This document shows, piece after piece, positions 4,879 to 45,936 of a DNA stretch of 64,000 nt. This DNA comes from a virus, in IMG/VR virus record IMGVR_UViG_3300032289_002472, positions 1 through 64,000 of that record, one strand, 5' to 3'. The notes below the pieces were generated by a model. That model was not told the DNA's origin, did not search any database, and was given only the letters and a program-made list of their open reading frames with translations. The translations under genes were made by a program, and so were the position numbers. Every line of letters begins with the position of its first letter. Position 1 is the stretch's first letter.

Positions 4879-5427
4879 TGGTTCACTGAGTCGAAGTGGG
4901 TTTCTTTGCTATTTTGGTTCACTACAACAAAGTGGGTTTCTTGTGTCTGTTGGTTCACTCGAAAAACCTGGGTTTCTGGCATTAAGTGGTTCACTATTGA
5001 TTCTTGGGTTTCTTGAATACGCTGGTTCACTATGGGAGATTGGGTTACTTCGATGTATTGGCTCACTGACTTTGCGTGGGTTTCTCGTATTCAATGGTTC
5101 ACTAACAACTACTGGGTTTCTTTGTTGGTTTGGTTCACTGATTCGCCATGGGTTTCTTCAATGCAATGGTTCACTACAACAAAATGGGTTTCTTGAGCTT
5201 GCTGGTTCACTTACGTCGGGTGGGTTTCTTTGTTGGTTTGGTTCACTGATTCTCCATGGGTTTCTTCAATGCAATGGTTCACTACAACAAAATGGGTTTC
5301 TTGAGCATTTTGGTTCACTACAAAAAACTGGGTTTCTTTGTGACCGTGGTTCACTATTTTCCATTGGGTTTCTAACAATGACTGGTTCACTGCGGTAATG
5401 TGGGTTTCTTTAGGTTCTTGGTAACCA
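4879..5427 (-). repeat. TIGR-like dual-spacer guide array 1 (15 x 36 nt)
   Basis: Strict alternation TGGTTCACT-9nt-TGGGTTTCT-9nt on + strand, with variable spacers. Confidence 0.88.
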
Positions 5428-5603
5428 CAACACGGATGACACACGTCACCCATGAAAGTGTAAAAAATAAGGCTGGGGACAACATATGCCATCCCCAGCC
5501 AAGTGAGCGGCCTTTGCCTGATAGTACGGTACTAAGATTAACGGACAATTGTGACCATGGCCGCATTGCCGTTAACCTATATAATGCCTAATGTACTACT
5601 ATT

Positions 5604-5640
5604 GTATTATGGCCTAAAAAGGGGGTGTTTTAGACCCCCT
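5604..5640 (-). promoter_or_regulatory. putative promoter for array 1
   Basis: GGGGGT-CTAAAAC-ACCCCC-TTTTT-AGGCCATAAT about 180 nt upstream of the array. Confidence 0.5.
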
Positions 5641-5654
5641 AGGGCCTAATATTT

Positions 5655-5692
5655 AAAAAAAACACTACCCAATTAAGGATAGTGTTTTTTTT
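5655..5692. terminator. bidirectional intrinsic terminator
   Basis: AAAAAAAACACTA...TAGTGTTTTTTT. Confidence 0.6.
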
Positions 5693-5697
5693 AGCTA

Positions 5698-6195
5698 CTA
5701 GGACCAAATGCGGTGCTTTTCAGCAACCCACTCTTGGCCATCGTAGTCCTTGATTTCCCACTCTATTCCAAATGGAACCTCTACGACACGAAGATTTGTG
5801 GCTTCAGGACCCAAAGCCTCAACTGCAGCGACCAATTTAGGGTCATCTCTGTTTATACCTTCACCATAGTAAACATCACCAGACAAAGGTTCGATTCCCA
5901 TATAGTTCTGCACAGCCTTTGACAGCTGGAACACCCCATAGGTGGTATATATTACCACTTTCTGAGGCTTGGGACCGATAGGCCTCACATATCTTGTGAT
6001 AGGTTCAACGAGATCGTCCTCGTCATTGGGATTCTCCCAATCGTAGACCAATTGATTCATGGTGGAAGCATCAAGAACGATATTAACATCATCGGACATG
6101 ATAACCGCCTCATGAACTGTAGAATTAGATTCCTCGTCCTTTCTATAAAGAACAGAGAAACCTGTGCATGGTTTTTGAATGTTTTCTAAGCTCAT
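5698..6195 (-). CDS. conserved phage hypothetical protein
   Basis: RDDPKLVAAVEALG...EWEIKDYDGQEWVAEKHRIW motif. Confidence 0.75.
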   Translation of the reverse strand: MSLENIQKPCTGFSVLYRKDEESNSTVHEAVIMSDDVNIVLDASTMNQLVYDWENPNDEDDLVEPITRYVRPIGPKPQKVVIYTTYGVFQLSKAVQNYMGIEPLSGDVYYGEGINRDDPKLVAAVEALGPEATNLRVVEVPFGIEWEIKDYDGQEWVAEKHRIWS

Positions 6196-6239
6196 AGTTT
6201 TTTGTTGTGGTTTAGATTGGATACTAAAAATGTATCCAT

Positions 6240-6276
6240 TATATTATGGCTAAAATAGTCCTTGATTTTATGGGCC
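6240..6276 (-). promoter_or_regulatory. putative phage promoter
   Basis: TATTTTAGCCATAATAT, same motif family. Confidence 0.45.
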
Positions 6277-6317
6277 TTAATTTAATATTAGACACTCCAT
6301 TCAATATAGCGTAATTT

Positions 6318-43013: not shown

Positions 43014-44253
43014 TTATTGGTGTTTGTTGAAGAATTCTAGGAACTTGCTTATGGGAAATACATTGTTAATGGACATACCCTGTTCAGTAATCCAGACAAC
43101 GCGAATCCACTCTGCAGAAAAATAAACGTCAATCAACTGCAAATTAAAACAAAACTGTGATTCAAATTCTTCTATGTTGTCTTGTATGCAGTCTTCCCAA
43201 GCTTTAAGCCCAGTTATCGTAGGATTATTGCTTGAGCGATTCCAACGTTTCTTTGGCATACTTGATAACCAACTTGATAAATTCTGCGCTTGGCTCATCG
43301 TTTTCTCCATTGATCCAAGCTTCACAGTCTTCCACAATTAGTTCAAGGGCTCTACGCATCTTTCCATTTTTTTTATTTAACTCATCAAGCCTTTGAGCTC
43401 CCTCTAGGATAGCAGTATTTGCTATTCCATCTTCAGATTCAATTTCATTAGAAAGAATCTTCAACGCATGAATTAATATTTCTGTTTTAGTTCTAATTGC
43501 TGTTTCCATTAATATCTTTTTTAACTTCGTCTAATTGTTGTCGAACCATATAAGATTCTTGAAGATAAGACTGTGCTACTTCTAAGAGGTCTCTAAGTTC
43601 AGTACGCAGGTTATTGGCATAAACTGTGGCCCTATTAACGTCTTCTCTAGTTTTATCTATTCCAACTCGCAGCTCGCTAATATGAAATATTGCGGTATCC
43701 AAGAGCGACATCAAACTATCTTCATCGCTCGGCAACTCTTTTGATTTTACCTTTATTACAGCTTCAAGTAACTCAGGTACACTCATATAATCTTTTTTTG
43801 TTATTTCTTGTTCTGTGCTCATAATTTTTATGATTTTCTAAGAGGACATATAGTCACGAACTATCTTTAAAGCCTTTAAATACTTAGAGTGGCTCTCAAG
43901 ATCTTCTTTCTGAAACCATTGAAGTTTCTTTTTTCTTTTCAACTCTTGAATGTCTTTTGAGATGCCCTTAATTTCTGTCTTTAAGTGCTCAAAAACAATT
44001 TTGTCGACCATCTCATAATCGTTTATTTCAATTTTCATTTTTTCTTTTTAGATGTTTCTTTTTGAAGCCTGTCGTGAAGTTTAAAGGTTTTCTTATTTAT
44101 TACTTGAAATGTCTTGTACAATTCTTTGTCAATAAAACAAGAATAGTTGTCTCCAAGATCTTGAGAGATATTAATGTCACCGACTAATTCGAGAGCAATA
44201 TCTCTAAGCTCGTCAAAAGCATCATCCAATTTTTGATTTGTTGTCTTTTTCAT
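43014..44253 (-). other. run of small hypothetical CDS (43014-43337, 43225-43509, 43493-43822, 43838-44038, 44035-44253)
   Basis: Tightly packed ORFs. Confidence 0.6.
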
Positions 44254-44261
44254 AATGTTTA

Positions 44262-44776
44262 ATTAACGCTCTTCCTTAATGGGTTTCTGGAGGAAAATGG
44301 CTCACTTTCTTGGGCTGGTTGTCTTTGTTGACCTGGTTCACTACACAAACATGGGTTACTTGGATTTTTTGATTAGCTGAATTCCTCTGGATTTCTACTG
44401 CCACAATGGCTCACTTGATAGATGTGGTTTGATGATGTTCAATGGTTCACTGGCTCTGTGTGGTTGTCTAGCTTTCGATGGTTAACTGGCGATCTTTGGG
44501 TATCTTGACTTACCGTGGTTCACTCTCATGCAGCGGGTGTCTAACGAATTCTGGTTAACTAATGTTCATCGGGTGTCTATCATCCACAGGTTCACTTATT
44601 CATAATGGGTTTCTAAAAACCAATGGTTCACTGGACCGGTCTGGGTTTCTCATTTGAGATGGTTCACTGATCTTCAGTGGGTGTCTACTTCATTTTGGTT
44701 CGCTGTCGTAATCTGGGTGTCTGCGATGCTGTGGCTCACTATGTCGTGTTGGGTGTCTTATGATACAAGGTAAATT
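44262..44776 (-). repeat. TIGR-like dual-spacer guide array 2 (14 units)
   Basis: TGGYTCACT / TGGGTKTCT alternation, 9-nt spacers (two of 10 nt), no ORF. Confidence 0.85.
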
Positions 44777-44779
44777 AAA

Positions 44780-45007
44780 TTAATGAGAGCAGCTACGAAT
44801 TGGACCATTACAACTTTCGCACCAATTAATAATGTCCGATACTCTTTGTTGCTCTGCTTGACTAAGGGGTCTCCCTGAGTCCATTTTTTCCATGGCACTC
44901 TCAAACACCCCATCTGTCTTTTTGTTGTTGCCCCCACTTGCCATAATAGCAATGAAAGCCAAAAACATTCCTGCGAACAGGAAGTATTTAATGTTTTCTT
45001 CGTTCAT
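44780..45007 (-). CDS. small membrane protein with C-terminal Cys motif
   Basis: TM helix, CESC...CSH. Confidence 0.6.
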   Translation of the reverse strand: MNEENIKYFLFAGMFLAFIAIMASGGNNKKTDGVFESAMEKMDSGRPLSQAEQQRVSDIINWCESCNGPIRSCSH

Positions 45008-45010
45008 GTG

Positions 45011-45148
45011 TTTATTGTATGTCGTGCAATTCTCTTAAAATATCCTCTATGTATTCTTCCCACTCCTCTTTTGTGATAAGCACTTCATGGCCTTCACACA
45101 AGATGTCGTGGATCTCTTTGAGGAGATCGTCAGAGATGTTTAGCTTCA
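45011..45148 (-). CDS. small acidic hypothetical protein (45 aa, not in track)
   Basis: MKLNISDDLLKEIHDIL... fills the gap between ORFs. Confidence 0.5.
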
Positions 45149-45499
45149 TTAAAGCTTGGTAACGTAACTAAGACGGTAAAAAGCCATAGACTCTTTAGCG
45201 TCCACATCAACGAACTTTCCAGAAGAGTTGTCTTTTGAGATAGTTGTCCATTCTCCTGACTCAAGCGACAAGCACTTTTGGATATTTACAGGGTGACTGT
45301 ATCCAGTCCAAGTAATAGTGGTATACCCATCCTTGTGACTAATAAAAGTCTTGGGTGGAGTTACACTAAGGCTCTGAACCGATACAGGCCAATAAATATC
45401 CTGTCTGGGTTGAATCCTTGTTGAGTAGTGGTTGACCAGCAAAAAGCTGGCAATTAATAGCGTAATAAATGCTAAGTATTTTCTAATTTCTAGTTCCAT
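45149..45499 (-). CDS. membrane-anchored hypothetical protein
   Basis: N-terminal TM; W...D...FYRL tail. Confidence 0.6.
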   Translation of the reverse strand: MELEIRKYLAFITLLIASFLLVNHYSTRIQPRQDIYWPVSVQSLSVTPPKTFISHKDGYTTITWTGYSHPVNIQKCLSLESGEWTTISKDNSSGKFVDVDAKESMAFYRLSYVTKL

Positions 45500-45610
45500 G
45501 GTGTTATTTTTTTAGTATTGGTAGTTCAGCCATAAAAGGCCCAACACTGAATAGATAATGATGGCTACTATGGCTACATAATATTTGTTAATTTTTGTTT
45601 TCATAATTAA

Positions 45611-45936
45611 TGGGACACTTCACAATCTTGGGTTACTTGCGACTGGTGGTTCGCTGAAGCGGACTGGTTTTCTAGCCTGTGGTGGCTTTTGTCGTTATAA
45701 ATGCGACGTCAAATTTATAACAAGTTCTAAGTATTTCTAGCTACTTTAAGTTAGAAATTAATATAGAATCACTAACAATATCTGGGTATCTTTCGTTCAT
45801 CGGTTCACTTTACGGAACGTGGTTTTCTAGGACGTACTGGTTCACTCGATCTGACTGGGTTTATGGGCATCGGTGGTTCACTCTTCAACTCTGGTTTACT
45901 TGGGCTTTTTGGTTCGCTGGGCACCCGTGGTTGTCT
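45611..45936 (-). repeat. TIGR-like dual-spacer guide array 3 (about 7 units, interrupted)
   Basis: Same boxes; 82-bp insertion splits TGGC|TCACT. Confidence 0.8.

Follow-up and report, generated by a model that had tools for sequence, protein, structure and literature searches.

Three dual-repeat TIGR arrays of a freshwater phage lie remote from the only tas gene on their contig

The window considered here is the first 64,000 bases of a linear viral contig of 113,067 bp (IMG/VR record IMGVR_UViG_3300032289_002472), which is estimated to be 72% complete and whose sequence is present in DNA runs from freshwater and lake metagenomes. Three TIGR arrays are located in this window and a single effector gene, tasA, was found on the same contig outside of it. 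The arrays, which belong to a large freshwater phage, are genuine TIGR arrays of the dual-repeat type. Together with tasA they form a TIGR-TasA system of the ordinary dual-repeat kind, found in a new phage. Its layout, with every array remote from tas, is uncommon. The distance from tasA amounts to 62.3 kb for array 3 and to 102.9 kb for array 1, and all of these elements are encoded on the same strand. Very probably, the phage's own single TasA, encoded on this contig in the same orientation at 62-103 kb from the three arrays, serves them in trans. In an earlier note on this DNA the arrays were described as orphans. This holds for the 64-kb window, but not for the genome, and the orphan status is a consequence of the window and not of the biology.

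Anatomy and variation of the arrays

Read on the plus strand, the two repeats TGGTTCACT and TGGGTTTCT alternate at 18-nucleotide (nt) steps at three sites, with 47 and 53 matches compared to maxima of 28 and 35 in 100 shuffles. The following elements were delimited at these sites:

5428-5520, minus strand: terminator hairpin of the upstream gene (5471-5500 plus U-run) and then the leader of array 1, aligning as a whole with the tas-array intergenic sequence of L015, the closest homologous tas locus found
4879-5427, minus strand: TIGR array 1, a truncated first edge repeat TGGTTACCA (5419-5427) and then 15 exact 36-nt units AGAAACCCA-N9-AGTGAACCA-N9
44280-44758, minus strand: TIGR array 2, 27 repeats corresponding to 13.5 units, some of them variant (AGACACCCA, AGTGAGCCA and others); two spacers are 10 nt long
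45765-45936, minus strand: TIGR array 3a, 10 partly degenerate repeats, or about 5 units
45600-45690, minus strand: TIGR array 3b, about 5 repeats, with about 75 nt of AT-rich palindromic sequence between it and array 3a

A dual-repeat TIGR array is defined by two alternating repeats of 8-12 nt, 9-nt spacers, 36-nt tigRNAs, a CCA box C and a UG box D (PMC12045711). The anatomy observed here broadly fits this definition, with an AG in place of UG in the A-rich repeat as a deviation: box D reads UG in the edge repeat AGUGAACCA and AG in the other, A-rich loop repeat AGAAACCCA. Divergent box motifs are allowed by the definition (PMC12045711). The CCA is present at the ends of all 31 repeats of array 1, of 23/27 repeats of array 2 and of 8/10 repeats of array 3a. 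The first repeat of array 1, TGGTTACCA, is a truncated or variant edge that is common to L015. On the 3′ side of its last repeat, array 1 is followed by a strong hairpin without a U-run. Arrays 2 and 3b lead straight into small open reading frames (ORFs), the former ending about 20 nt ahead of a small minus-strand ORF and the latter directly preceding a hydrophobic ORF of 30 codons. No array beyond these sites was detected on the whole contig, neither by a unit profile (nhmmer --max) nor by a repeat-agnostic detector of CCA phased at 18 nt, and Rfam yielded nothing at the arrays.

An 18/36-nt periodicity at 112.8-113.07 kb of the contig was rejected as an array, as it belongs to a coding repeat: contig 112,600-113,067 (minus strand, outside the window) encodes a collagen-like Gly-X-Y repeat protein with a tail-fibre-like C-terminal part, which runs off the contig end. 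One may ask whether the three arrays themselves are coding or structural DNA repeats instead of guide arrays, and a plus-strand frame of 175 codons (4871-5398) does cross array 1. However, such a frame arises because 36 nt equal 12 codons, and the 10-nt spacers of arrays 2 and 3 break every reading frame. Conservation is confined to the 9-nt repeat blocks, whereas the 9-nt blocks between them vary, the true coding periodicity at the contig end is quite unlike the arrays, and the same architecture stands beside tas in 73 of 80 loci (see below). A coding or structural origin is therefore hardly credible to us.

In contigs from four other lake samples, array 2 (window 44295-44760) differs from the version in the window, with flanking genes that are 95-99% alike. 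The related strains show a 36-nt deletion, skips of 80-146 nt and one block swapped for a different unit. At one site two spacers are fully replaced, and the variant repeat between them reads canonical. These differences are modest evidence of unit turnover with conservation of the repeats, and only modest because metagenome contigs can misassemble in repeats.

An internal duplication was observed in array 1 (window 5122-5301, minus strand), where the spacers TTTTGTTGT, TTGCATTGA, TGGAGAATC/TGGCGAATC and AACCAACAA repeat 108 nt apart with one substitution; it comprises two units at the 108-nt period. Several other spacers of this array are like xTTTGTTGT, which is itself like the leader sequence GTGTTGTGG. 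Downstream of array 1, a two-hairpin element of about 75 nt is present in three copies, all on the minus strand (window 3740-3830, 3227-3302 and 2310-2385). A fourth copy is found at L015:5631-5720, about 300 nt upstream of tas, in a phage contig that is otherwise dissimilar (78-86% DNA identity). The first stem shows compensatory changes between copies, and the element ends with AAACCACAACA, just ahead of ORF starts. The same AAACCACAACA tail also follows array 1.

The distant tasA gene and its relatives

The gene encoding the Tas protein lies 44.3 kb past the end of the window:

contig 108,284-109,522 (= L014:1468-2706), minus strand: tasA, an ORF of 412 codons from a GTG, with Met20 as probable start

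A profile built from four array-adjacent Tas proteins of other phages gave one match over the whole contig (108,317-109,438, minus strand, E 3e-81), in an open frame without stops. With the profile of 45 Tas family members, the tasA product is again the sole match on the contig, at E 9e-126. By direct sequence comparison (phmmer) the protein matches TasR (9MTY) at 6e-9 and SpTasH at 5e-7, and the family profile finds the same two in the PDB at 3e-28 and 9e-21, respectively. An AlphaFold2 model based on the family alignment reached a predicted local distance difference test score (pLDDT) of 84 and a predicted template modelling score (pTM) of 0.81. When this model was compared by Foldseek, TasH and TasR chains occupied the first ten places (probability 1.0, E 8e-8 to 5e-6), and the IS621 bridge-RNA recombinase and archaeal Nop5 came next.

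The protein has a coiled coil plus Nop fold. Its coiled-coil helix begins after about 20-40 residues, and the alignment with 9MTY starts at the coiled coil of 9MTY. Since no HNH or RuvC nuclease domain was matched by Pfam, the Tas of this contig is of the TasA type. In SpTasH, Y289 and H296 process the pre-tigRNA (PMC13421893). Tyr393 of TasA aligns with SpTasH Tyr289 and is invariant in the family; His402, which is nearly invariant among 45 members, is offset by two residues downstream from where His296 aligns. Compared to the usual family members of 285 amino acids, TasA contains about 100 amino acids of beta-rich insertions, for which neither a nuclease nor any other lead emerged from the ESM Atlas. 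A 15-bp tandem repeat of CTCCGGTTCGACTGT with 5.8 copies (contig 109,767-109,853; L014:2951-3037) was noticed some 250 nt upstream of where tas starts, within a possible minus-strand ORF of 153 codons.

The association of this protein family with the arrays was established in other phages. An exact search for the repeat pattern revealed this pair of repeats in seven further viral contigs, from which 20 kb around the arrays were taken and all ORFs clustered. This comparison across phages, proposed in the earlier note, left Tas as the sole protein family adjoining same-repeat arrays in four different phages, always on the CCA-ending strand. The array-adjacent family matches Pfam PF02371 (E 1e-5), SpTasH (E 1e-5) and TasR (9MTY, E 3e-13), whose structure was solved by Faure et al. 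as the TIGR-TasR complex (PMC12045711). Members from three phages (G002, G005 and G006), which adjoin arrays with the same two repeats, are 31-38% identical to TasA of the contig. Searching with the single protein delivered no close relative, and the alignment-based search delivered 178. Among 80 homologous viral tas loci, 73 have a CCA-phased array that shares the strand of tas and mostly lies no more than a few hundred bases from it, and in 1/80 the array is solely on the opposite strand. By these counts the RNA strand is fixed and the Tas family is array-associated. In the window, the CCA-reading strand is the minus strand, as it is for tas and most genes.

The locus L015, with an identity of 50-58%, carries AGACACCCA loop repeats as in array 2. 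In its tas-array interval, a short conserved block is followed by a terminator hairpin, then by the block ACACTTTCATGG and by GTTGTGGTTACCA. This interval aligns with the sequence upstream of array 1, so that a module of terminator, leader and TGGTTACCA is common to both. Because of this alignment, array 1 looks like a tas-adjacent array that kept its leader and lost its tas neighbour. A further IMG/VR contig of 40,223 bp (G004) carries two arrays with the same repeats at 38.3-40.2 kb and no tas gene in the fragment; these arrays reach the contig end, and tas may lie just beyond.

For the window itself, it had been claimed that no ORF beside the arrays looks like a Tas or Nop protein, and this is confirmed by the 45-member profile. 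In a search with hmmsearch --max against all stop-to-stop frames of at least 30 amino acids on the contig, the one match lies outside the window and all others have E >= 2. Pfam Nop (PF01798) and Transposase_20 (PF02371) gave no match in the six frames of the window. Pfam and PHROGs scans of nine array-flanking ORFs revealed no Nop or IS110-type match and instead a SET-domain protein, an HNH endonuclease and proteins of unassigned function. As a negative test for Tas, Pfam Nop had to be rejected: it is silent on this contig and on seven other array-bearing contigs, some of which encode tas, and its silence here is therefore uninformative. Detection of Tas needed PF02371 and the custom family profile.

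One of the flanking ORFs had been named in the earlier note as the nearest effector candidate:

46591-47346, minus strand: helical ORF of 251 amino acids with a weak phrog_20946 match, upstream of array 3 and on its strand

A novel non-Nop effector beside the arrays, such as this ORF, might bind the array RNAs, and the position upstream of array 3 on the same strand, the helical character and the unassigned function could be taken in this sense. However, the hhalign probability against the Tas profile is 0.4%, and no match was obtained in Pfam or the PDB. Neither this ORF nor the other array-flanking ORFs have a homologue in the array-flanking 20-kb regions of other phages, where the sole 'ORFs' in common are spurious frames through the arrays themselves. 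As a canonical cognate Tas is present in the genome, we regard a non-Nop effector as very improbable. A single-sequence AlphaFold2 model of it reached a pLDDT of 41 and was therefore not used for a fold search. Just upstream, the phage encodes a SET-domain protein (window 47550-48089, minus strand; Pfam PF00856, E 7e-13).

Guide supply in trans and an adjacent alternative

In the earlier note three possibilities were raised, namely an effector encoded elsewhere in the genome and acting in trans, one borrowed from another element, or a novel protein. The intact tasA gene on the same contig speaks for the first of them, and the trans service itself we infer. Each array would be transcribed on the minus strand, array 1 from its own leader and arrays 2 and 3 together with the surrounding small accessory genes. 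TasA dimers would then bind the repeat motifs CCA (box C) and UG/AG (box D), and the conserved Tyr/His pair would cut the precursor within the edge repeat, giving 36-nt tigRNAs. Their two 9-nt spacers would each pair with a different strand of an 18-bp DNA site. Because TasA is devoid of a nuclease domain, RNA-guided DNA binding or repression is the expected outcome rather than cleavage. By analogy to nuclease-less Tas repressors (bioRxiv 10.64898/2026.09.09.750476), such binding or repression by trans-loaded tigRNAs is most likely.

Several points weigh against this interpretation. A look through sequencing runs for this sequence returned DNA runs but no RNA run. The CCA is missing in 4/27 repeats of array 2 and in 2/10 repeats of array 3a, and with such degenerate repeats arrays 2 and 3 could be partly decayed. 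The dual-repeat Tas proteins published so far are said to be compact (bioRxiv 10.64898/2026.09.09.750476), whereas TasA carries about 100 amino acids of insertions; yet relatives with insertions (L011, L012 and L026-L034) adjoin dual-repeat arrays. As the contig is linear and estimated to be 72% complete, the missing part could hold one more array or a second effector. Finally, targets were sought on the contig and in about 1 Mb of phage loci and none were found.

For this search, the target geometry was deduced from the published 8-nt 3′ overhang: spacer B precedes the reverse complement of spacer A, and 0-2 nt separate the two. Adjacent spacers were paired in both geometries and both phases. 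The 113-kb contig contains no self-target at 0-1 mismatch and five at 2 mismatches, compared to 5-11 for shuffled spacers. A candidate at the tas 5′ end (109,521-109,538, 2 mismatches) is at chance level and was discarded. In the approximately 1 Mb of fetched phage loci, the only match is of low complexity and lies inside another array.

According to the earlier note, a canonical tas gene with its own array elsewhere in the genome would make the three arrays ordinary satellites. A canonical tas gene does exist, but it has no array of its own, since none is present within 3.5 kb upstream, where the contig ends, or within about 60 kb downstream. The contig ends have no common terminal repeat and no in-frame join. 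Should they be contiguous in the real genome, array 1 would be located upstream of tas at a distance of at least 8.4 kb. The immediate downstream neighbour of tas is the following:

contig 107,770-108,283 (L014:954-1467), minus strand: non-coding structured region of 514 nt, a chain of hairpins between tas and the convergent next gene

The distant TasA could use a guide beside it, and this region would be an example. The arrays would then be relics, or they would belong to another effector, encoded in the 28% of the genome that is missing or on a co-infecting element, for which the incompleteness of the contig leaves room. The region is strongly structured, with a minimum free energy of -184 vs -125 kcal/mol for shuffles (z = -8.65), and it sits where most relatives have their array. 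However, it differs from a stem-loop TIGR array, in which large hairpin loops contain two spacers with box C/D motifs on their flanks: its hairpin loops of 3-9 nt are too small for two spacers, and the box spacing does not match. The pattern CCA-N9-[AT]G...CCA-N9-[AT]G is absent from it; the minus strand of the contig has 54 occurrences within the arrays and 4 outside them. The large insertions of TasA are a trait reported for stem-loop-binding Tas proteins, but TasA keeps the Tyr/His pair, which is reportedly absent in stem-loop binders, and relatives with insertions stand next to dual-repeat arrays, as mentioned above. Moreover, the array repeats and the array 1 leader match those beside the closest Tas homologues, and the perfect regularity of array 1 is a poor fit with decay. 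No match to the region was obtained in Rfam or, by blastn, in GenBank phages. A guide beside tas thus seems unlikely, and we consider the 514-nt region an unexplained neighbour and not a guide source.

The remaining content of the window is that of a phage genome with most genes on the minus strand. A divergent tailed-phage structural module with tail-fibre matches occupies the middle, and 10 tRNA genes are present. Rfam reports a group I intron at window 954-1151 (minus strand, 63.6 bits; gathering score 50) and a tmRNA match of 81 nt that covers tRNA-like ends only at window 57329-57409 (minus strand, 48.8 bits; gathering score 47). The tmRNA-like element was not called by ARAGORN.

Comparison with known systems and meaning of remote arrays

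The system agrees in most respects with dual-repeat TIGR-TasA systems such as FpTasA of Flavonifractor plautii (PMC12045711). Both have 36-nt units with two alternating short repeats and two 9-nt spacers, a CCA box C after each repeat and a solo coiled-coil plus Nop effector without nuclease, and both are phage-borne. In contrast to these, TasA of the contig has about 100 amino acids of insertions, and the loop repeat carries AG instead of the consensus box D UG. The main difference concerns the layout: in published TIGR-TasA loci the array is situated directly up- or downstream of tas, whereas the arrays described here are 62-103 kb away from it.

The best matches in sequence and structure over the Nop domain are SpTasH of Salicola phage CGphi29 (PDB 9W03, 9W04, 21KL) and TaTasR (PDB 9MTY), and the processing pair of SpTasH is conserved in TasA. 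These two proteins are DNA-cutting and have an HNH or RuvC nuclease at the N terminus, whereas TasA starts with a coiled-coil helix and is without a Pfam nuclease. For MbTasA and a catalytically dead TasR, which are likewise nuclease-less, DNA binding or repression was demonstrated (bioRxiv 10.64898/2026.09.09.750476). These RNA-guided repressors of transcription use stem-loop or adjacent arrays, and for TasA of the contig repression is inferred.

Within the Tas family, arrays that are exclusively remote are a minority pattern. The nearest example is a complete 277-kb phage with direct terminal repeats (G005), which has the same two repeats and a single tas with one array beside it and a second array 142 kb away. 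This phage keeps an array directly next to tas, whereas the phage of the window keeps none. In five tas contigs without an adjacent array on the same strand, no remote CCA-phased array was detected, all five being estimated to be at most 60% complete. Orphan or remote CRISPR arrays that depend in trans on a distant cas locus also separate guide arrays physically from effector genes, but CRISPR is an unrelated system and the analogy is one of layout only.

It may be, although we rate this at slightly less than an even chance, that tas is fully uncoupled from its guide arrays in this phage, a lone TasA serving as trans hub for three arrays dispersed over different transcription units. Of these arrays, the first would then have its own conserved leader, and the other two would lie inside operons of accessory genes. 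If this is true, the supply of guides could be timed apart from the supply of the effector.

Published TIGR surveys seek arrays only around tas loci, so that dispersed arrays of this kind would be missed and the corresponding tas genes would be counted as array-less. The TIGRFinder preprint lists 6,685 arrays vs 20,096 tas loci. If they are common, remote arrays could explain part of the roughly two-thirds of tas loci without a known nearby array. The gains and losses of units and the replaced spacers in array 2, together with the duplication in array 1, are small observations on how TIGR arrays change. The phage described here, in a similar way as the complete genome of G005, provides a natural example of TIGR arrays that work, or at least persist, tens of kilobases from tas.

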